Assembly (NCBI GenBank): GCA_030527015.1
Contig: JAUNBR010000003.1
Location: forward strand, 28,624 to 92,623
Origin: Planctomycetia bacterium
GTDB lineage: Bacteria > Planctomycetota > Planctomycetia > Pirellulales > Thermoguttaceae
Reading direction: 5' to 3'
DNA length: 64,000 nucleotides
Position numbers and translations under genes: made by a program. The notes under the pieces were generated by a model. The model saw only the letters and a list, made by a program, of their open reading frames with translations. It was not told the origin of the DNA and did no database searches. Within the stretch, counting starts at the first letter, position 1, and each line of letters begins with the position of its first letter. This document shows positions 3,573-62,976 of the stretch, piece by piece.

Positions 3573-3784
3573 TATACCCGATGTACCTATAAATTTTCAC
3601 TTCTCCGGCATTTTTATACCCGATACACTATAAAATTCCGCTTCTCCGGCATTTAGCTTCGCCGAAAATGCCTGCAGTCAGAGTCACACAAAACGGAAAT
3701 TTAAAATGGAACCAGTATATACTTCGCTGAAAACGCCGGTTAAGAACCACTCAAAACTTAAATTTAAATTGGAATCAGAGTATC
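3573..3784 (+). mobile_element. SIR105 copy split by insertion of another SIR105 copy (nested composite)
   Basis: Outer 5' part 3573-3614 ends ...CTCCGGCATTTT. Outer 3' part 3720-3784 resumes TACTTCGCTGAAAACGCC...AATTTAAATTGGAATCAGAGTATC. A complete inner copy lies between them. Confidence 0.8.
3615..3719 (+). repeat. SIR105 full copy (inner element of nested pair)
   Basis: TATACCCGATACACTATAAAATTCCGCTTCTCCGGCATTTAGCTTCGCCGAAAATGCC...GGAAATTTAAAATGGAACCAGTATA. Confidence 0.92.
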
Positions 3785-7633: not shown

Positions 7634-7738
7634 TATACCCGATACACTATAAATTTTCGCTTCCCCAGCATTTTGCTTCGCTGAAAATGCCTGCGTTCAG
7701 AACCGCGCAAAACTAAAATTTAAAGTGGAATCAGTATA
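7634..7738 (+). repeat. SIR105 full copy
   Basis: Near-consensus copy starting 14 nt after the infA stop. Confidence 0.95.
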
Positions 7739-14228: not shown

Positions 14229-14261
14229 CAGCCGGACACAGAGCATTCATACACCACGACT

Positions 14262-14339
14262 TATCCCCGACACACAATAAAATTCCGATTTTTCTGGCGT
14301 TTTTTGCTTCACTGAAAAAATTGGAGAAGCGGAAATTTA
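14262..14339. repeat. SIR105 palindromised short derivative (left arm + loop + inverted left arm)
   Basis: TTATCCCCGACACACAATAAAATTCCGATTTTTCTGGCGTTTTTTGCTTCACTGAAAAAATTGGAGAAGCGGAAATTTA. Confidence 0.6.
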
Positions 14340-14446
14340 TATACCCGATACACACTATAAATTTCCGCTTCCTCGGCATTTTGTTTCACTGAAAATACCT
14401 GTTTTCAGAACCGCAAAAAACGGAAACTTAATGCGGAATCAGTATG
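14340..14446 (+). repeat. SIR105 full copy
   Basis: TATACCCGATACACACTATAAATTTCCGCTTCCTCGGCATTTTGTTTCACTGAAAATACC...GGAAACTTAATGCGGAATCAGTATG. Confidence 0.9.
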
Positions 14447-14528
14447 TGCATCAGGGACCATTAAACGGTAATCCGAAAAAAAACGGAATTCCCAAAACTC
14501 CATATTTCAGAAAATTCAAAGATTCTAT

Positions 14529-16479: not shown

Positions 16480-16565
16480 AATATAACTCGCGGCACGGTG
16501 ACTGGCATTCTTTTAAACTTCATTTTGTATCGCCAGAAAACGAAAAGTTTAAGTCAGACCGATTT

Positions 16566-16670
16566 TATATCCGATACATGATGATTTTCACTTCCCCAGC
16601 ATTTTTACTTCGCTGAAAATGCCTGCTTTCAGAGCCACACAAAACGGAAATTTAAAGGAGAACCGATATA
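16566..16670 (+). repeat. SIR105 full copy
   Basis: TATATCCGATACATGATGATTTTCACTTCCCCAGCATTTTTACTTCGCTGAAAATGCC...GGAAATTTAAAGGAGAACCGATATA. Confidence 0.9.
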
Positions 16671-18373: not shown

Positions 18374-18414
18374 TAAATCCGATGCACTATAAATACTCAC
18401 TTTCTCTGCCGTTT
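18374..18414 (+). repeat. SIR105 5'-arm fragment
   Basis: TAAATCCGATGCACTATAAATACTCACTTTCTCTGCCGTTT. Confidence 0.5.
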
Positions 18415-23300: not shown

Positions 23301-24878
23301 ATGCATCCAAAATCTCCTCTAGATAACTCGGATCCCATTCCTACAGATACTCCTAATTTTTCGGAACCGACTTTTTTTCCGGAAAAGTTTCTTTCGAAAC
23401 CGAGTCCTCAAAAAATTTCCCGTTTCATAATCATCGGAGCGGCCACCGTCATTCTTCTGGCGGGAATTAAAGCGGCGAATGATATCGTCGCGCCGGTTTT
23501 ACTGGCGTTATTTGTAACGATCATCCTTTTAGTTCCCCTGCGCTGGCTCCAAAAAAAAGGATGTCCCAGTATTATTTCTCTTATTTTAGTTCTTGGAACG
23601 ACTTTAATGCTTTTTTTAGGAATCGCCATTTTCGTCGGACAGTCACTAAATAATTTTATCGGAGAAATTCCTGTATATCGAGAAAAAATCGCACTTAAAA
23701 TTCAGGTGCTGGAACAAAAATTAGAACAGTATGGTTTCGCTCTGGGATGGGATGAAGAAAAAGAATCTCTGGAAGAGACCGAAGAATCACAAAAAACCGA
23801 AGATTCACAAAAAAATGTTACGCCACAGGAAACAGGTACACGCGCTACAGAAAAAAATCCTTCTGCGGATCTTCCTCTAAACACGAACTCCACGAAAAAC
23901 ACAAAAAATTCAGATGGCATACCGCCTGAAAATTTAATTCCCTCTCAAAATGGTGAAACAGAAGAACTTCCGAGTAAAAAGTCTAAAAATCAGAGTCCCC
24001 CGTCCATGGAAAACCTTACGCAGAAAAAAAATCCTAAAAAAACAGGACTTTTTTCTGGTGAAGATACCTTATTTTCGGATTATTCTGAAACAGACTCGGA
24101 TTTTATAGCCTCTTATGACCCCGATAAATTTTTAGCGGAAATAAATGAAGAACAGTCTCTGATTCCCCTGGATACCAAAACGGTAATGTACTGGATCACA
24201 AAATCAGTCGTCGAAATAAAAAATTTAGCTGCGTATGGCTTTCTTGTCATGATTTTTACGCTGTTTATGATTTTTGAAGCGGCACGCTTCCCAGCTAAAG
24301 TGGATCTCGCTTTCGGAAAAGAAGCTCCGATCGGAAATAAACATTTCCATCATATCGCTCACGAAATCCGGCGTTACCTTTTCCTAAAAGCCATTTCCAG
24401 CTTACTGTCTGCAGCGGCCGCGACCATGGTTTACGTATTCTTCGGAGTACCCGCCGCCCTCTTTTGGGGTCTTGTCGCATTCTTCCTTTATTTCATACCA
24501 AATATCGGCGGAATCGTCGCCTCCATCATTCCCGGTCTACTCATTTTCATGACGTATGATGTACAGGGTGTAATTCTGTATATTCTGTGTCTGACGGCGA
24601 TCGAATGTACGATCGGTTACGGAATCGAGCCAAAAATGCTTGGACACGGTCTGGGAATTTCCACCGTGGTTATTCTTATGTCACTCTTTTTCTGGGGATG
24701 GATTCTCGGCCTGGTGGGATTTTTCCTTGCCGCGCCCTTAACTATTATGGTAAAAATCGTCCTCCAGGCCTTTAAAGAAACAGAATGGCTCGCGATTCTT
24801 ATCGGAGACCAGCCAAAACATACGACAAAACATTTTAGCTTTTTCACATCAGAAGAAGAATCGATTTCCGATGCATGA
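23301..24878 (+). CDS. AI-2E (PerM/UPF0118) family transporter with long acidic/low-complexity insert
   Basis: N- and C-terminal TM bundles with a GLGISTVVILMSLFFWGWILG..G..LAAPLT block. An insert of about 170 aa rich in E/K/S/T/N sits between them. Confidence 0.8.
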   Translation: MHPKSPLDNSDPIPTDTPNFSEPTFFPEKFLSKPSPQKISRFIIIGAATVILLAGIKAANDIVAPVLLALFVTIILLVPLRWLQKKGCPSIISLILVLGTTLMLFLGIAIFVGQSLNNFIGEIPVYREKIALKIQVLEQKLEQYGFALGWDEEKESLEETEESQKTEDSQKNVTPQETGTRATEKNPSADLPLNTNSTKNTKNSDGIPPENLIPSQNGETEELPSKKSKNQSPPSMENLTQKKNPKKTGLFSGEDTLFSDYSETDSDFIASYDPDKFLAEINEEQSLIPLDTKTVMYWITKSVVEIKNLAAYGFLVMIFTLFMIFEAARFPAKVDLAFGKEAPIGNKHFHHIAHEIRRYLFLKAISSLLSAAAATMVYVFFGVPAALFWGLVAFFLYFIPNIGGIVASIIPGLLIFMTYDVQGVILYILCLTAIECTIGYGIEPKMLGHGLGISTVVILMSLFFWGWILGLVGFFLAAPLTIMVKIVLQAFKETEWLAILIGDQPKHTTKHFSFFTSEEESISDA

Positions 24879-24881
24879 TTT

Positions 24882-25089
24882 TTATCCAGATGCATTATAA
24901 GAATGACGTATTACCGGCATTTTATACCCGATGCACTATGAATTTTCACTTTCCCGGCATTTTTGCTTCGCCGAAAATACCTGTTTTCTGAACCGCACAA
25001 AACGGAAATTTAATGCAGAACCAGTATTCTCGGTAAAATGCCGGCACCCAGAACCACGCAAAACGAAAATTTTACGTGGAGCCAAGATA
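24882..25089 (+). mobile_element. SIR105 copy split by insertion of another SIR105 copy (nested composite)
   Basis: Outer 5' part 24882-24922 ends ...TACCGGCATTT. Outer 3' part 25028-25089 resumes TCTCGGTAAAATGCCGGCACCCAGAACCACGCAAAACGAAAATTTTACGTGGAGCCAAGATA. Confidence 0.75.
24923..25027 (+). repeat. SIR105 full copy (inner element of nested pair)
   Basis: TATACCCGATGCACTATGAATTTTCACTTTCCCGGCATTTTTGCTTCGCCGAAAATACC...GGAAATTTAATGCAGAACCAGTAT. Confidence 0.9.
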
Positions 25090-25196
25090 AAGTAAAATTA
25101 CAGAATATGGCACTTTTCGAGGTAATGTACATTCCTAAATATAACCCCGGAAAATAACCACATACCGGCCAGGGAATCCGCATTTTAGGCCAAAAA

Positions 25197-27743
25197 TCAG
25201 GGAAGCATGATGACGCGGAACCCGAGATAATGCCGACGATTCGTGGGTTCTTCTTTAAGACGGCACGCAGAACGGCAGCGTCTTGTGGGAGACGTCCATC
25301 CACCACCACGCGCCACACGATCTGTACCCTCTGTCGGGCCAGTGGGATCCGTAACATCCTCCTCAGTAAAAGATTTATGCCAGTCGGCACTCCATTCCCA
25401 TACGTTTCCGTGCATATCATGGATTCCCCAGGCATTCGGCTTACGCATCCCCACCGGACAGGGTTTACCGTCAGTATTTTTCGTATACCATGCCACTTCA
25501 TTAAGATGATAACATGCCTCTTCTCTACTGGTAATATTTTTTCCATTATTAAGACTGGCGGTGGATCCCGCCCGACAGGCATACTCCCACTGTGCCTCCG
25601 TGGGAAGATAAATGTCGAAACCTTTCTCACGTAATTTCTCGCAAAATATTTGGCAGTCTTCCCAACTTACCTGTTCCACGGGAAAGTTCTGTGTGAGTAT
25701 TCCCTTCACTTTATAGGCACTGGTGCCCCAGCGCGAAAAACAGGCCGGATTATTACGCATAACAGTCGCCCACATTAACTGTGTAACCTCTGTCTCCATG
25801 ATCCAAAAACCTTCAGAAAAAGTAACCTTATGCTGTTTTTCGTCAGATTCCCGACCCAATTCATTTTTCGGTGACCCCATAATAAACTCACCCGGGGGAC
25901 ACCAGCGGAAGGCATACGTCACGCCATTAATTTTTTTTGTTATTCGGGTACCCGGTTTACGTTCTTTGGTACGTGCAGAAGTTTTTTTCTTCTCTCCGGA
26001 AGTTTTTATTTCTTCCGCAGACTCATTATCCGTTTTTCCAGAAGCTGCTTTCTCAGTTTTCGTTTCTTTCTCTGCAGAAGTTTTCGCTTCTTTCTCCGCC
26101 TCCCCAGTTTCGCTTTCCTTTTCCGTTCCCGATTCGGCTTTATCTTCTGGTTTAGCTTCCGCTTCTTTTTCCGCGGATCCAGCTTCTGCTTCCTTTTCCG
26201 TTTCAGCGCCAGCTTCCGCTTTCTTTTCTGTTTCAGATTCCGCTTTATCCTCTGTAGTTTCAGCCTCTGTTCCTTCGAATTTTATACCATTTTTTTCCGC
26301 GTACTTTTCCGCCACGGATCCATTCATTCCATGAATAATGAGTTTTGGACACCCGTCAAAAACCTTATCCTCAATTACCACCACGCTCTCTGGAACAGTA
26401 ACCGTATGAAGTGCCGAACATCCGTAAAACGCACGAGCCATTATCGTCGTAACGCCTTCAGGAATAAAAATTTCCTCAAGATGTGATCTGGAAAACGCAC
26501 GGCCTTCGATCGTCGTGACACCGTCAGGAATGACATAAGTTCCACTTTTCATCTGTGGACAGGCCAGTAAAGCTTTTCCATCTTTCGAGAAAAGTACGCC
26601 ATCATGAACAGCATAATGATGATTGTCAGACGCGAATTGGATTTTCTCCAGATTCCTGCAGTGCCCAAACACGCCGCTTTCAATATACGTAACACTATCA
26701 GGAATCGTAACACTCGTAAGCGTGTCACAGCCTCTAAACGTACTGGCATTAATCGCCTTTACGGGCAGATTCTCAATCATTTCGGGTATCTTAACTTCAG
26801 AATCAGAGCCCAAATATTTTGTTAAAATGACATAATCGGCACGGGTCGCATAATCATATTTTACCACGGAAACATCCTCTTCCGTTTCCGGAATGACAGA
26901 AGCTGGCTTATTATCCGTATCCGTGGCTTTCTCAGCAGATGTATTTTTTTCAGCAGACCTGTCTTTTTCAGAAGGAGAAACTTTTTCAGAAGATGTATTT
27001 TTTTCGATTTCCGGATTTCTTTGGACTATTTTTTCAGAAGTTCCCAGACCGCCCAGCAGCCAAATCAGCATGAGAAGTAACAGCACTCCCGCAGTAATAC
27101 CGCCCCCGAGAAACATCTGTGACTTCTTTTGTACCGTCGGGGCTTTTGGATGCAGCGGAGTTTTCTTTGTAGAAGGAAAGAGCGGAGAAACCGAATGTTT
27201 ATTCCCCTCTACAGACACATCTGGCGCCACAAAAAGAGAGGATAAAACATCCGACTCTGATTTCGTCTCAAGAGGGGGCACGGGAACAGTTTTTTTATTA
27301 ATCGCAGACGCAGAAACACTCGGCGGTAAATTCTTTTCTGCAGGAGACACACTCAGTACAGAACCGTCTTTCGGAGGAATTTTATTTTCCAGAGAAATCT
27401 TCGTCGAATGTAAGGAAACGTCCGCCGCTTCCACCGCCACCGCTTTCGGCGGACGAACGAATTCCAGCTCTTTCCTTAACTTGGCATCATACTCCTGTTT
27501 CTTTTCAGGATTTAAAAGAATGACCCGTGCCTGCGAAAGTTCATTCAAAATCTGCTGCGATTCCTGAGAGTATTTTCCCGTCTGAAAAGTCCGAATAAAC
27601 GTCATCTGTCGGTCCGCAGCATTAGAAATGACAGATTCCTGAGATTCAAGATTCTTGATTCCCAATAATCGATAATGACTGATAGGCCGTTCTTCCGGGG
27701 AAATACCGAGCCATTCGTGATATGGGTCAAAAGAAGCAGGCAT
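25197..27743 (-). CDS. multidomain protein: J-like domain, TM, BspA-type LRR, acidic linker, formylglycine-generating-enzyme (SUMF1) domain
   Basis: N-terminal DPYHEWLGI...HYRLLGI. One TM (GGGITAGVLLLLMLIWLLGG). IPD.VT.IE..AF repeats. EKEAE/KAE low-complexity linker. C-terminal FGE motifs (WEW.ADW, RGGGW, R.RSACR). Confidence 0.8.
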   Translation of the reverse strand: MPASFDPYHEWLGISPEERPISHYRLLGIKNLESQESVISNAADRQMTFIRTFQTGKYSQESQQILNELSQARVILLNPEKKQEYDAKLRKELEFVRPPKAVAVEAADVSLHSTKISLENKIPPKDGSVLSVSPAEKNLPPSVSASAINKKTVPVPPLETKSESDVLSSLFVAPDVSVEGNKHSVSPLFPSTKKTPLHPKAPTVQKKSQMFLGGGITAGVLLLLMLIWLLGGLGTSEKIVQRNPEIEKNTSSEKVSPSEKDRSAEKNTSAEKATDTDNKPASVIPETEEDVSVVKYDYATRADYVILTKYLGSDSEVKIPEMIENLPVKAINASTFRGCDTLTSVTIPDSVTYIESGVFGHCRNLEKIQFASDNHHYAVHDGVLFSKDGKALLACPQMKSGTYVIPDGVTTIEGRAFSRSHLEEIFIPEGVTTIMARAFYGCSALHTVTVPESVVVIEDKVFDGCPKLIIHGMNGSVAEKYAEKNGIKFEGTEAETTEDKAESETEKKAEAGAETEKEAEAGSAEKEAEAKPEDKAESGTEKESETGEAEKEAKTSAEKETKTEKAASGKTDNESAEEIKTSGEKKKTSARTKERKPGTRITKKINGVTYAFRWCPPGEFIMGSPKNELGRESDEKQHKVTFSEGFWIMETEVTQLMWATVMRNNPACFSRWGTSAYKVKGILTQNFPVEQVSWEDCQIFCEKLREKGFDIYLPTEAQWEYACRAGSTASLNNGKNITSREEACYHLNEVAWYTKNTDGKPCPVGMRKPNAWGIHDMHGNVWEWSADWHKSFTEEDVTDPTGPTEGTDRVARGGGWTSPTRRCRSACRLKEEPTNRRHYLGFRVIMLP

Positions 27744-28041: not shown

Positions 28042-28083
28042 TATATCTATGATTTTTATAAATTTTCTCTTCCCTGGCATTTT
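28042..28083 (+). repeat. SIR105 5'-arm fragment
   Basis: TATATCTATGATTTTTATAAATTTTCTCTTCCCTGGCATTTT. Confidence 0.4.
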
Positions 28084-32585: not shown

Positions 32586-32704
32586 TACATCTCCAGCATT
32601 TTTATGCTGCATGAAATATGATTTTTATCATCACACAAATTTCATAATCACACAAAATAAAAATTTATGTTTAACCAGCGCATCTCCGAAAATTTTATAC
32701 TTTT

Positions 32705-32814
32705 TATATCCGATACACGATAAATTTCCGCTTTCCCAGCATTTTTACTTCGCTGAAAATGCCGGCATTAAAAGCCGCACAGAACGGAAATTTAAACAAG
32801 AATCAGATGGTATA
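32705..32814 (+). repeat. SIR105 full copy
   Basis: TATATCCGATACACGATAAATTTCCGCTTTCCCAGCATTTTTACTTCGCTGAAAATGCC...GGAAATTTAAACAAGAATCAGATGGTATA. Confidence 0.85.
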
Positions 32815-34495: not shown

Positions 34496-34596
34496 AATTA
34501 AAGTTTTGATCAGCCACAAAACTTGTGCGTTTTCAGTAAAATACAAAAACATCAAAAAAGGTGAAATTTCATCATTCAGTGAATATAACTCACTTA

Positions 34597-34740
34597 TATA
34601 CCCGATGCATTATAAAATTCCGTTTCATCTTTCTGCCGACAGGTCGGCCGGCATTTTTGCTTCGCTGCCAGCAGCAGGCTGAACTGAAAATGCTTCTTTC
34701 AGAGCCGCACAAAACGGAAATTTAAACGAAAACCAGTATA
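34597..34740 (+). repeat. SIR105 long variant (two extra blocks, 144 nt)
   Basis: Consensus arms plus ATCTTTCTGCCGACAGGTCGG inserted before CCGGCATTTTT, and CCAGCAGCAGGCTGAACTG inserted in the central loop. Confidence 0.85.
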
Positions 34741-35627: not shown

Positions 35628-35751
35628 TATATGGTTTTCCTTTAAATTCTCGTTTTGTACGGCTCTGAAAACAGACATTTTCAGCGAAAAAAATACTTGG
35701 CATGCCGGTCGGCGAACATGAGAAACGGAAATTTATCGTGCATCAGATATA
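35628..35751 (-). repeat. SIR105 long variant (one extra block)
   Basis: TATATGGTTTTCCTTTAAATTCTCGTTTTGTACGGCTCTGAAAACAG... plus the GC-rich block CTTGGCATGCCGGTCGGCGAACATG before AGAAACGGAAATTTATCGTGCATCAGATATA. Confidence 0.8.
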
Positions 35752-35975
35752 AATATACACGTTCCTTCAAAATTTTAAATTCGCCACCAGCTATTAAAAT
35801 TATCGTATCACACCACCAAGAGTCCATTATTATATAATAATTTTTCTGAAAAACAAGCGATATTTCCTGTTTAGACCGACTCCGCATTAAATTTCCTTTC
35901 ACCGCAGCTCTGACTGTTATGTTTCGGATTCACGAAACGCCGAATGGAGAAAAAATAGACAAAAAAGTAAAAAAT

Positions 35976-36113
35976 TATGCTGGTTCCACTTTAAATTTCC
36001 ATTTTGTGCTGCTCTAAAAGAGGCATTTTTAGCCCAGCCTGCTGCCGGCAGCGAAGCAAAATGTCAGTCTGTCGGCCGAAAGGTGAAATGAAATTTTATA
36101 GTATATCGGGTAA
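35976..36113 (-). repeat. SIR105 long variant (two extra blocks, 138 nt)
   Basis: TATGCTGGTTCCACTTTAAATTTCC... with CCCAGCCTGCTGCCGGC in the loop and TCAGTCTGTCGGCCGAAAGGT before the arm. Same positions as in 34597-34740. Confidence 0.85.
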
Positions 36114-36331
36114 AATATTAAAATATATAGTGTACCAGATAAATTACCTCTTTTTTTTGATTTTTTTCGAATTATTTATATACCAGCCAATTTTCCGCCG
36201 AAACTGTTTTTTGCGCAAAAATTATTACTCAAGAAATATTTATCTTTTAATATCAAAAAATTATAAATTTATTAAATTTTTCTTGACAAAAATTACACAT
36301 CATATAAAATATAATATCATCAGATTTAACA

Positions 36332-38004: not shown

Positions 38005-38110
38005 TATACTGGTTCCAATTTAAAATTTCGTTTTGTGCGGCTCTAAAAGCAGGCTTTTTCAGTGAAGCAAAAAAGCCGGTGAAGCTGAATTTTATAATGT
38101 ATCGTATATA
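38005..38110 (-). repeat. SIR105 full copy, subfamily B
   Basis: TATACTGGTTCCAATTTAAAATTTCG...CAGGCTTTTTCAGTGAAGCAAAAAAGCCGG...GCTGAATTTTATAATGTATCGTATATA. Confidence 0.9.
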
Positions 38111-38215
38111 AAATGCTTCGCTTTTAAATTTCCGTTTTATACGGCTCTGAATGCAGGTATTTTCAGTGAAGCAAAAATGCCGAGAAAGCGGAATTTTATC
38201 GTGCATCCGGATATA
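38111..38215 (-). repeat. SIR105 full copy (terminus diverged)
   Basis: ...CGCTTTTAAATTTCCGTTTTATACGGCTCTGAATGCAGGTATTTTCAGTGAAGCAAAAATGCC...GCGGAATTTTATCGTGCATCCGGATATA. Confidence 0.85.
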
Positions 38216-38220
38216 AAGTG

Positions 38221-38280
38221 TCAGAAAAGCAAAAATTTCGTGCCAGAAAAGCAAAAATTCATAGTGCATCGGATACAAAA
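38221..38280 (-). repeat. two SIR105 arm fragments
   Basis: CAGAAAAGCAAAAATTTCGTGC and CAGAAAAGCAAAAATTCATAGTGCATCGGATACA. Confidence 0.4.
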
Positions 38281-39800: not shown

Positions 39801-40008
39801 TATACCTGATACCATAAAAAAATTCATTTTCCGGCATCTTATACCCGATACACTGTAAATTTCCACTTCCTCCGTATTTTACTTCGCTGAAAATGTCTGT
39901 TTCAGAACCGCAAAAAATGGAATTTAAACGAAAACCTGTATATTTCGCGAAGAATATGTATATTTTCAGAGAAACAAAAAACGAAAATTTAAGGTAAAAC
40001 CGCCATAA
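39801..40008 (+). mobile_element. SIR105 copy split by insertion of another SIR105 copy (nested composite)
   Basis: Outer 5' part 39801-39839 ends ...TTCCGGCATCT. Outer 3' part 39943-40008 resumes TTTCGCGAAGAATATG...AAAAACGAAAATTTAAGGTAAAACCGCCATA. Confidence 0.65.
39840..39942 (+). repeat. SIR105 full copy (inner element of nested pair)
   Basis: TATACCCGATACACTGTAAATTTCCACTTCCTCCGTATTTTACTTCGCTGAAAATG...GGAATTTAAACGAAAACCTGTATA. Confidence 0.85.
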
Positions 40009-50463: not shown

Positions 50464-51162
50464 TCACTCACCACGAGGTAAAAGAAGGTAAACCAGGGTC
50501 ATAATACTCTGGAGAGTAGCGGCGACATAAGTCATCGCGGCGGCACGTAAAACGCGATTTACACTGCCGAGAGCATCTGAGGTAAAAATACCCATATTCG
50601 CCAGTTCGGCTTTTGCACGTGTGCTGGCATTAAATTCCACAGGTAAATTGATAATCTGGAAAAAGACGACAGCTGAAAAAAGGACGATTCCGGCCAAGAT
50701 AAGAGGCGGAAAGGAAAAGAGGATGCCTAAAATGAACATCCAGATACCCGCACCACTTCCAAAACCCGCCAGCGGAACGACAAGATTTCGGATGGTTAAG
50801 GGGGCGTACTTATGAGCGTGCTGAAGGGCGTGGCCCGCTTCGTGAGCCGCGACTCCCACGGCGGAGGCGGTAAATCCATGATAAACTTCTGGACTGAGGC
50901 GTAAAACTCGGGCAGAAGGGTCATAATGATCTGATAATGTGCCTTCCACCTGCTCGATCGCGACATCCATTAAACCCGCATTATCCAAAATCCGTCGCGC
51001 GGCCTGCGCTCCGGAGATGGAAGTCGGATGGCTCTGCCCAGACATAAACGCGGATTTCACCCATACTTGAGCCAGGAGTCCTAAAAGAAGAAATGGACCG
51101 ACCAAAATAAAATAAAGCGGATCCAAAACAATAAACGAAAAAATGGGGATTCCTGTAAACAT
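50464..51162 (-). CDS. zinc metallopeptidase (Zn_peptidase_2 / YugP-like)
   Basis: HEAGHALQH motif, membrane segments and AAGGAG RBS. Confidence 0.85.
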   Translation of the reverse strand: MFTGIPIFSFIVLDPLYFILVGPFLLLGLLAQVWVKSAFMSGQSHPTSISGAQAARRILDNAGLMDVAIEQVEGTLSDHYDPSARVLRLSPEVYHGFTASAVGVAAHEAGHALQHAHKYAPLTIRNLVVPLAGFGSGAGIWMFILGILFSFPPLILAGIVLFSAVVFFQIINLPVEFNASTRAKAELANMGIFTSDALGSVNRVLRAAAMTYVAATLQSIMTLVYLLLPRGE

Positions 51163-51813: not shown

Positions 51814-52509
51814 TCATATCCGCCCATTTTGCTGCGAAGTTCCTCTGAAAATGAGTAGGATATAATACAGAAGTGTCATGACGATTTGGAGCGTCGCCGC
51901 GATATAAGTCATGGCGGCAGCATTCAGTACCCGACTTACATGAAACTGCGCATCTTGAGAAAAAGCACCCATGTTAGCCAGCTGGGTTTTTGCACGAGAA
52001 CTGGCGTTAAATTCCACAGGTAAATTAATAATTTGAAATAAAACAGCAGCAGAAAAAAAGATTAAACCCGTTACCGCGAGAGGTTTCAGGGATATGATTA
52101 GTCCGAGGAAAAACATAATTAAACCGAGATTACTCCCGAAACCCGCAGCAGGAACGATTAAATTACGGAGTTTCAGAGGAAGATAATTCGTGGCGTGCTG
52201 CAGTGCATGGCCCGCTTCATGGGCAGCGACACCCACGGCGGAAGCGTCATAATTATTATAAACATCAGGACTTAATCGCAGAACCCGAGCTGTGGGATCA
52301 TAATGATCGGAAAGTGTTCCGGAAATCATTTCGATTTTTATATGATGTAAGCCGGCTTTATCTAAAATTTTTCGTGCTGTCTGATAACCGGATAAAACGG
52401 TATGATATTTTTGTCCAGATATAAAAGCAGATCTTACCCATGCCTGAGCGAAGATGCCTAAAAGAAAAAATGGACCGACAAGAATGAAATAAATGGGGTC
52501 TAATATCAT
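51814..52509 (-). CDS. zinc metallopeptidase (Zn_peptidase_2 / YugP-like), paralogue
   Basis: Collinear with 50464-51162: same HEAGHALQH, INLPVEFNAS and AAMTY.AATLQ blocks. Confidence 0.85.
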   Translation of the reverse strand: MILDPIYFILVGPFFLLGIFAQAWVRSAFISGQKYHTVLSGYQTARKILDKAGLHHIKIEMISGTLSDHYDPTARVLRLSPDVYNNYDASAVGVAAHEAGHALQHATNYLPLKLRNLIVPAAGFGSNLGLIMFFLGLIISLKPLAVTGLIFFSAAVLFQIINLPVEFNASSRAKTQLANMGAFSQDAQFHVSRVLNAAAMTYIAATLQIVMTLLYYILLIFRGTSQQNGRI

Positions 52510-54234: not shown

Positions 54235-54320
54235 TAATTTAGCATCTTATTCCAGGCGCATTTATAATTTCTATTTTTCTGTCTGCTGACTGGCTGGTTT
54301 TTCGCGGAGTATGAAAGAGT

Positions 54321-54368
54321 CTGCTTTTTCAGGTTACACAAAACGGAAATTTAAAGTGGAACCTGATA
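54321..54368 (+). repeat. SIR105 3'-arm fragment (between the two tat genes)
   Basis: CTGCTTTTTCAGGTTACACAAAACGGAAATTTAAAGTGGAACCTGATA. Confidence 0.6.
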
Positions 54369-58364: not shown

Positions 58365-58386
58365 AAAATAGCTGTTTTTTTGAATT

Positions 58387-58657
58387 TATATTCGACGTAT
58401 GATAAATTTTCGTTTTCTCGACATTTTTTATCGGATACACGATAAATTTCGCTTCTCTGATATTTTTGTGCTAAAAATATTTGCGTTTCTGCTGATTCTC
58501 CTGTAAATTTCCGTTTCATGCGGCTTTTAACGCAGACATTTTCAGCGAGAAAAAAATGCCAGAAAAGCGGAAATTTATCGTGCATCGGGTATAAAACCGC
58601 ATAAAATGAAAATTTAAAGGAGAGCCGGTATAAGGAAATTTATCGTGTATCAGTATA
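58387..58657. repeat. mosaic of at least 5 SIR105 pieces in both orientations
   Basis: Left-arm fragment 58387-58428. Left arm plus hairpin 58429-58495. Nearly full minus-orientation copy 58495-58593. Right-arm fragment 58596-58632. Left-arm fragment (inverted) 58633-58657. Confidence 0.7.
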
Positions 58658-60659: not shown

Positions 60660-60766
60660 TAAATGAAATCTGATTTTCTGGTTTCTGATTTACCTCCGTC
60701 TTTTTTACTTCAGCGGTTTTATCTTTTGTAAAAATATAAAGTGGAAAAATATTTTTGATTCCACTT

Positions 60767-60872
60767 TATATCCGATATACCATAAATTCCGCTTCCCAGG
60801 CATTTTTACTTCGCTGAAAATGCCTGGCTTTCAGAGCCGCACAAAATGGAAATTTAAACGAAAACCAGATAA
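60767..60872 (+). repeat. SIR105 full copy
   Basis: TATATCCGATATACCATAAATTCCGCTTCCCAGGCATTTTTACTTCGCTGAAAATGCC... Preceded by a 10-bp inverted repeat, TAAAGTGGAA (60737-60746) / TTCCACTTTA (60759-60768), built from right-arm sequence. Confidence 0.9.
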
Positions 60873-62888: not shown

Positions 62889-62914
62889 TTCTACTTTTCA
62901 TTTTCAGTTTCCGT

Positions 62915-62976
62915 GACTCTGAAAATATCCGCGTTTAGTACCCCACAAAATGGAAATTTAAAGTAAGTGCAGTAAA
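62915..62976 (+). repeat. SIR105 3' two-thirds fragment
   Basis: GACTCTGAAAATATCCGCGTTTAGTACCCCACAAAATGGAAATTTAAAGTAAGTGCAGTAAA. Confidence 0.5.

Follow-up and report, generated by a model that had tools for sequence, protein, structure and literature searches.

A probable nested self-insertion in a dense hairpin repeat family of an uncultured Planctomycetia bacterium

Results

Organization of the composite repeat at 24882-25089

The 64,000-nt stretch of Planctomycetia DNA analysed here (contig JAUNBR010000003.1, hereafter the window) carries many copies of a non-coding repeat of about 105 nt, and this report concerns a composite of such repeats at 24882-25089. The composite lies in the gap of 318 nt (24879-25196) between two convergent genes, one for an AI-2E family transporter and one for a protein of 848 aa, and takes up 208 nt between both stop codons. 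The features of the locus are as follows (TIR, terminal inverted repeat; MAG, metagenome-assembled genome; ORF, open reading frame).

23301-24878, plus strand: gene for an AI-2E family transporter (PerM-like), Pfam PF01594, with 100% identity to MDO4549798.1 of a Planctomycetia bacterium MAG
24882-24922, plus strand: outer (older) copy, 5′ part, with the decayed left TIR and the 5′ arm of the central hairpin; ends ...TTACCGGCATTT
24914-24923, plus strand: 5′ arm of the outer central hairpin, CCGGCATTTT; the inner copy begins at the 3′ end of its T-run
24923-25027, plus strand: inner (younger) complete copy, TATACCCGATGCAC...GAACCAGTAT, in the orientation of the outer copy
25028-25089, plus strand: outer copy, 3′ part, with the hairpin loop, the 3′ arm and the right TIR; TCTCGGTAAAATGCCGG...GTGGAGCCAAGATA
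25035-25044, plus strand: 3′ arm of the outer central hairpin, AAAATGCCGG, pairing with 24914-24923
25197-27743, minus strand: gene for the 848-aa protein with LRR_5 and FGE-sulfatase domains (ORF list, Pfam matches), convergent with the transporter gene

The composite is very probably a nested self-insertion, that is, a complete repeat of about 105 nt lying inside an older copy of its own family. A sequence-only reading of the window had described it in this way, and direct reading of the letters bears out its coordinates to about 2 nt. The outer 5′ part, which can also be described as ending ...CCGGCATTT, begins 4 nt past the stop codon of the transporter gene. The limits of the inner copy at 24923-25027 can be placed to within 1-3 nt, since the T-run of the outer copy leads straight into the inner TATA and the 3′ end of the inner copy reads ...CAGTATT and not ...CAGTATA.

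A profile hidden Markov model (HMM) was built from 43 other full-length copies, with copies that take part in composites left out. The inner copy scored 98.9 bits over HMM positions 1-105, and the outer 3′ part by itself scored 24 bits over positions 46-104. When the inner copy was excised in silico, the outer parts gave one continuous match of 40.3 bits over positions 5-104, in which the 5′ part aligned to consensus positions 5-41 once joined and contributed about 16 bits beyond the 3′ part. The rejoined outer copy also regained a perfect 10-bp central stem (CCGGCATTTT with AAAATGCCGG) across the junction, with one arm on each side of the inner copy, and its 3′ arm is of the rare GCCGG variant. 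The left piece was then replaced in two sets of controls: 40.3 bits was reached neither by any of 2,000 53-mers drawn at random from non-element parts of the window (maximum 38.7) nor by any of 2,000 shuffled versions of the piece (maximum 39.1). Excision of each of the 50 full copies of the window in turn gave no match spanning the junction in 42 cases. The earlier claim that the outer halves map to consensus positions of about 1-41 and 43-105 thus stands, and with it the nested arrangement, since the halves rejoin as one copy with a score that the controls do not reach.

Two explanations that dispense with an insertion were weighed against these data. In the first, truncated halves and a full copy would have come to lie side by side independently, or through recombination or replication slippage between neighbours. 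Solo 5′ and 3′ halves broken near the same position do exist in the window, and tandem and abutting copies are common; however, the two halves at this locus are exactly complementary (about 1-41 and about 43-105), have the same orientation, leave no spacer to the inner copy and together restore the perfect 10-bp stem with its rare 3′-arm variant, and the arrangement is seen four times. Recombination, for its part, would by unequal exchange of tandem copies yield the order 5′-3′-5′-3′, not the observed 5′-5′-3′-3′. We therefore regard this origin as very unlikely, and chance juxtaposition was rejected on the rejoined score, the restored stem and the count of 0 in 4,000 controls.

In the second, the composite would be an assembly artefact arising from repeat-induced chimeric joining of reads, for which the extreme abundance of the repeat, and the breaking of short-read contigs from the same sequencing run inside copies, could be held to speak. 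An independently built Logan assembly contig of 5.9 kb (SRR24915838) is nevertheless identical over 24860-25210 and spans the composite and both flanking genes at 100% identity, and the inner and outer copies, only about 63% identical, are too unlike for an assembler to merge or mix up. Misassembly was rejected on the strength of this identical contig and is hardly credible.

A dense family of hairpin repeats in the window

The repeat unit is 105-106 nt long, non-coding and without a transposase gene, and its 106-nt consensus is TATACCCGATACACTATAAATTTCCGCTTCCCCGGCATTTTTGCTTCGCTGAAAATGCCTGCTTTCAGAGCCGCACAAAACGGAAATTTAAAGTGGAACCAGTATA. A profile search of the window found 50 full-length copies (27 on the plus and 23 on the minus strand) and about 20 fragments, which corresponds to 0.8 full copies per kb. 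The family covers 7,331 nt, which amounts to 11.5% of the window and to 38% of the non-coding DNA in it. The non-coding share of the window is 30%, a large one for a bacterium. Almost all of the family sequence (98%) is non-coding, and 32 of the 36 intergenic gaps are occupied. The TIRs are 26-27 nt long and imperfect (TATACCCGATACACTATAAATTTCCG... and ...CGGAAATTTAAAGTGGAACCAGTATA) and pair in the predicted fold; examples lie at 7634-7659 and 7712-7737. Being small, non-coding, TIR-bearing and dispersed in many copies on both strands, the family is in form a MITE (miniature inverted-repeat transposable element). A target duplication, which counts among the defining traits of MITEs, did not emerge from a scan for duplications of 2-9 bp (see below).

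Between the TIRs lies the central hairpin, which in the consensus is GGCATTTT-loop-AAAATGCC. The consensus, treated as single-stranded DNA, folds well below shuffled sequences (z = -3.8). Both stems are kept in 54 copies, with 84% of cells paired, versus 23-56% when the partner columns were slid; the stems for this test were set by hand, RNAalifold on the MAFFT alignment having given no structure owing to gaps. Compensatory variants of the stem are found, with GGCATTTT and AAAATGCC as one pair of arms, GGCTTTTT and AAAAAGCC as another in one subfamily of the window, and GTCATTTC and GAAATGAC as a third in another species. The compensatory changes in both stems imply selection on intrastrand pairing.

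No Rfam family matched at the gathering threshold anywhere in the window, blastn against plasmids and phages returned no match to the family, and the literature searched by topic and by sequence string yielded no description of it. The family is an extremely dense MITE-like hairpin element of Planctomycetia, undescribed in the literature searched.

Some copies depart from the standard form. Longer variants at 34595-34739 (plus strand), 35977-36116 (minus) and 35628-35753 (minus) have added GC-rich palindromic segments beside the central hairpin (e.g. TTTCTGCCGACAGGTCGGCC and GCTGCCAGCAGCAGGCTGAA) and could be a subfamily or carry insertions of a second tiny element. Solo 5′ halves (18374-18413 and 28057-28083) and solo 3′ halves (54301-54365 and 62913-62973) have breaks near consensus position 41-47, as the nests do, and could be remnants of nests after deletion. 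Short-read Logan contigs of SRR24915838, for example one that matches the MatE-family gene at 986-2296, end within repeat copies, so the family fragments assemblies of this organism.

Recurrent nesting at one internal position

Further nests occur in the window. In what follows, the composite at 24882-25089 is called nest A, and a slash within a sequence marks a break.

3573-3783, plus strand (nest B): outer copy 3573-3614 and 3720-3783, inner copy 3615-3719; same internal site; the outer halves rejoin at 64-65 bits
39801-40008, plus strand (nest C): outer copy 39801-39839 and about 39942-40008, inner copy about 39840-39941; break at 39839/39840; the outer halves rejoin at 33.5 bits
58386-58634, plus strand (triple nest): 5′ half 58386-58428, broken at the same T-run (58428/58429) by a second copy, 58429-58489 and 58596-58634
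14261-14462, no single strand (nest at another T-run): plus-strand copy 14340-14445 inside the TIR (GGAAATTTA/) of a decayed copy on the minus strand; junction-spanning match of 26 bits

In four of the nests (24882-25089, 3573-3783, 39801-40008 and 58386-58634), the break coincides with the end of the T-run, near consensus positions 41-43. That nest A is broken at the same internal position as the composite at 3573-3784 had been pointed out from the letters, and it proves correct, the inner copy starting in both directly after the T-run that ends the 5′ hairpin arm (GGCATTT/TATACCC at 24882-25089 versus GGCATTTT/TATACCC at 3573-3783). Removal of the inner copy of nest B joins GGCATTTT/ to /TACTTCGCTG and restores the consensus variant GGCATTTTTACTTCGCTG, which is also present in the copies at 16564-16669, 32703-32809 and 60765-60871; nested copies in this way supply in-silico empty sites that restore an intact element. 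In the triple nest, the 5′ half (58386-58428) ends in ...GACATTTT and the second copy starts directly after it; a third copy in inverted orientation (58490-58595, minus strand), lying against GGTTT on its own strand, in turn interrupts the second at about consensus position 66/67, and the match across the junction scores 52.6 bits. The segment 14261-14339 is a chimeric palindromic copy, composed of a 5′ half, the loop and the reverse complement of the 5′ half, that was later hit by the copy at 14340-14445.

The sequence-only reading had further taken the events at 24882-25089 and 3573-3784 to be independent. Identity between the inner copies is 79% for nests A and B and 77% for A and C, and identity between the outer copies is 63% and 54%, respectively; the nearest relatives of each part of a composite are other dispersed copies and not the counterpart in another composite. 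Because the matching parts are too different and their nearest relatives are dispersed elsewhere, nests A-C are independent, which for A and B is what had been claimed. The same data bear on the idea that all 208 nt were copied together, either as a 'double element' or as a segmental duplicate of 3573-3784, with no separate insertion. This idea gains from the common architecture at 3573-3783, 39801-40008 and 24882-25089, each with a 5′ half, a full copy and a 3′ half in one orientation and with one break. It is largely refuted by the divergence of the matching parts and by their nearest relatives being dispersed single copies, and copying as a whole would not be expected to leave the inner copy of each composite much nearer to the consensus than the outer one; we hold it to be highly improbable.

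Relative age was assessed, as the sequence-only reading had proposed, by identity to the consensus.

24882-25089: inner 0.875, outer 0.713
3573-3783: inner 0.905, outer 0.816
39801-40008: inner 0.829, outer 0.683
Fourth nest: inner 0.816, outer 0.716
Fifth nest: inner 0.716, outer 0.714 (tie)
Sixth nest: inner 0.885, outer 0.587

The inner copy is the nearer to the consensus in five of the six nests, with one tie, and the three outer copies broken at this site rank 47th, 52nd and 53rd of 53. The outer copies are shown by this measure to be older than the inner copies, although identity to the consensus is an imperfect clock where subfamilies exist.

Insertion of the left end against a T-run

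Of the 50 full copies, each taken in element orientation, 66%, 74% and 80% have T at the three respective positions that precede the initial TATA. The left flank is TT in 32 of the 50 (5.0 expected, p = 2e-20) and TTT in 21 (1.6 expected), whereas the right flank is AA in just 10 (5.6 expected), which makes the preference one-sided. The left flanks differ among four recent and nearly identical copies (730, 38006, 50164 and 53657), and in nests A and B the AAAA arm of the outer copy itself needs the T-run as its partner, so that the T-run derives from the target and not from the element; the alternative, a T-run belonging to the element, was rejected on both counts. The incoming left end also lies against a T-run in two nests at other internal positions (GCGGTTT/ and GGAAATTTA/). 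At 38006-38276 (minus strand), a 5′ partial copy precedes two full copies in head-to-tail order, the second of which adjoins TTT at the degenerate 3′ end of the first. Here too a T-run at or within an earlier copy was the site of insertion.

Non-coding DNA of the window contains 804 runs of at least four T, of which about 60 (7.5%) are central loops, and four to five of about 70 insertions hit such loops, a frequency about as high as T-run targeting alone predicts. The same break recurs because the left end prefers a T-run, every element offers a run of four or five T, and intergenic space is crowded. Nested copies in so crowded a family are a side effect to be expected of target preference and do not amount to a new mechanism.

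The nest could be just as real with its site picked by structure, through single-stranded HUH/Y1 integration (IS200/IS605- or RAYT-like) at the stem-loop junctions of extruded hairpins; this differs from T-run targeting solely in what selects the site. Consistent with such a reaction are the one-sided, orientation-specific flank preference without a variable target duplication, the position of four of some six to eight nests at the loop junction despite other T4 runs in the element, the compensatory changes by which both stems are kept, and the precedents of REPINs and IS608 (PMC3116915). The long TIRs, in contrast, are conserved across species while the interior diverges, a pattern typical where a transposase binds the ends; the arms are not palindromic themselves and are without GTAG or CGTC heads; the termini resemble the TA-flanked Correia repeat; and generic non-nested sites are T-runs with no sign of a hairpin. 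Nor was a Y1 gene found among the ORFs of the window and the related loci, and no RAYT or Y1 gene was seen in the 112 kb examined. Selection of the site by structure is on balance unlikely, though a serious alternative to selection by the T-run alone.

Discussion

Possible mechanism of movement

Taken together with the T-run preference, the anatomy of nest A suggests a simple course of events. An old copy of about 105 nt very probably lay just downstream of the transporter gene until a younger member of the family, oriented like its host, entered it where the T-run at the close of the 5′ hairpin arm has its 3′ end. Insertion by the family is orientation-specific, with the left end placed at a T-run, and each element has a run of four or five T at the point of the break. 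With elements making up more than one third of the non-coding DNA, hits on existing copies are to be expected. Movement would be catalysed in trans by an enzyme presumably encoded elsewhere in the genome.

Two kinds of enzyme come into question, and we give each of them a little less than an even chance. One is a cut-and-paste transposase with a TA target, of the sort supposed to move MITEs of the Correia, ERIC and RUP types, the TA duplication of which would be hidden in the TATA ends. The other is a single-strand, hairpin-dependent reaction of the HUH/Y1 type, as in IS200/IS605 and in the REPIN-RAYT system, which would better explain the one-sided T-run and the absence of a visible duplication. 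A scan for target duplications of 2-9 bp at all boundary offsets found nothing above permutation, and an invariant TA duplication may be hidden in the TATA ends.

A more specific proposal is that the hairpin element moves via a single-stranded intermediate with an HUH/Y1-type or other non-DDE enzyme, integrates without duplication at T-runs of stem-loop junctions and uses its own hairpin as a landing pad. We consider it improbable in this full form. If it were true, the Correia-like termini would link the family to the Correia elements of Neisseria, and genes common to these Planctomycetia genomes and Neisseria would be candidates for the enzyme.

Several findings weigh against the account given here, both of the nest and of its origin. 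The outer 5′ part of nest A is by itself too decayed for a significant local profile match and has about 70% identity to the consensus. A real empty site, with an intact outer copy and no inner one, was not found, the nearest relatives standing at about 57% protein identity and having no synteny; two of these relatives that were compared are non-syntenic and have no element downstream. With regard to the enzyme, no transposase was detected by Pfam scans among the 38 ORFs of the window (at least 150 aa) or the 20 ORFs of the related-genome loci. The junctions speak with two voices on a TA duplication: that of nest B fits none, since it rejoins to GGCATTTTTACTTCGCTG with no base doubled or lost, and those of nests A and C give loop lengths slightly nearer to the consensus if TA is counted as duplicated. 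Finally, two further T4 runs on the minus strand of the element were not hit, so that a plain T-run rule may be incomplete; in these small numbers, the unhit runs hint at an added preference for the loop junction.

A nest of this kind is a small experiment made by nature: the family consensus gives the host sequence, from which the insertion point (to 1-3 nt), the orientation and the order of the copies can be read without a second genome. Its use lies mainly in this read-out of target choice and relative age.

Relation to known elements

In size (about 105 nt), lack of coding capacity, mostly intergenic position in both orientations, long hairpin fold and high copy number, the family is like the TA-flanked class of bacterial MITEs, above all the Correia elements (CREE) of Neisseria but also ERIC and RUP. 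With Correia elements it also shares TIRs of about 26 nt that start with TATA. Further marks of Correia elements are a TA target duplication, an internal IHF site and promoters. We know of no transposase that has been identified as mobilising Correia elements, and a strong one-sided preference for T-runs has, to our knowledge, not been reported for them. The planctomycete family differs from them in its host phylum (Planctomycetota), in an unrelated interior sequence and in its much higher density, 0.8 full copies per kb against the roughly 0.1 per kb of Correia elements; and unlike the TA-flanked Correia elements, it has no TA duplication demonstrated in the 2-9 bp scan.

Correia elements are 104-157 nt long (PMC3184786) and have a 26-bp terminal repeat of the type TATAGTGGATTAA... 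(PMC5039591). Compared in register with the Correia repeat tatagtggattaaatttaaa... (PMC5039591), the right end of the planctomycete element matches at 15 of 20 positions and the left end at 13 of 20, a weak resemblance that rests on 20 bases. Among control 26-mers starting with TATA, 1 of 437 matched as well as the right end (top 0.2%) and 6 of 437 as well as the left end (top 1.4%). The Correia-like termini may serve as a lead, not as a sign of membership. If the resemblance is real, genome comparison could help to find the enzyme that moves such elements.

The family also has traits of REPINs, elements mobilised by RAYT (Y1/HUH) transposases, which likewise are short (about 100 nt), consist of two inverted arms that form a hairpin, persist vertically and occur in great number between genes, with no visible target duplication. 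The arm of a REP, however, forms by itself an imperfect palindrome that is short, rich in GC and headed by GTAG or CGTC (PMC3733652, PMC3116915), whereas the planctomycete arms are AT-rich, start with TATA and pair with each other, not with themselves. A single-copy RAYT gene flanked by the repeats, another mark of such systems, is absent from the window and from six loci of related genomes. Insertion beside a short specific sequence at one end is a signature of IS200/IS605 (PMC3116915, PMC2817692), and the T-run at the left end only, together with the lack of a variable duplication, recalls it; this is a likeness in behaviour and not membership, as the planctomycete element has clear TIRs and no coding capacity, whereas IS200/IS605 elements are without TIRs, have subterminal hairpins and encode TnpA.

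Self-nesting at a preferred internal target, serving as a read-out of preference and relative age, has precedents in eukaryotes, namely in plant MITEs (PMC5172404) and in Drosophila double insertions (PMC5932611). Those elements have defined TA or TAA duplications, whereas the present ones lie in a compact bacterial genome and have as their target a T-run at a stem-loop junction. Repeated landing at a fixed position in a short palindromic repeat is also known from the insertion sequence IS1397 and from IS110-family members such as ISPpu9 and IS621, which target REP/BIME palindromes (PMC1525189, PMC12288879). These, unlike the planctomycete repeats, are autonomous and hit an unrelated target, whereas in the window one non-autonomous family supplies both the insert and the sequence that it hits.

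Distribution of the family and genomic context

The family is present in at least two other Planctomycetia MAGs, S1R_St_39 and S19M_St_30, as revealed by a scan of genome contigs with the family pattern (at least seven loci). The copies of S1R_St_39 (loci L002 and L005) are near the consensus of the window, and those of S19M_St_30 (L003, L004, L007 and L008) form a subfamily with the same termini and a different interior, in which the hairpin arms are GTCATTTC and GAAATGAC. Termini that stay conserved while the interior diverges are typically seen where a transposase recognises the ends. Density in both genomes is far lower, with 1-3 copies per 8 kb. Among JGI metagenome contigs, the junction-specific pattern had 0 matches and the family pattern one partial match that looks like chance, and the family is essentially absent from this collection.

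The family is unusually dense in the window, the host of which is an uncultured Planctomycetia bacterium. The next relatives of its AI-2E transporter have about 57% identity, which indicates an uncultured planctomycete without a close sequenced relative. Look-ups of exact proteins, made to extend the contig, gave nothing beyond one Logan contig of 1.7 kb, and a promoter and terminator scan of the locus at 24882-25089 found nothing above shuffled sequences.

Two observations concern the genes among which the copies lie. The tandem paralogues of Zn_peptidase_2 at 50464-51162 and 51814-52509 (minus strand) have element copies between them. The AI-2E transporter itself carries a long, charged, low-complexity insert at residues 150-290 or thereabouts, which is absent from most homologues and goes with its length of 525 aa, against about 435-500 aa in the homologues.

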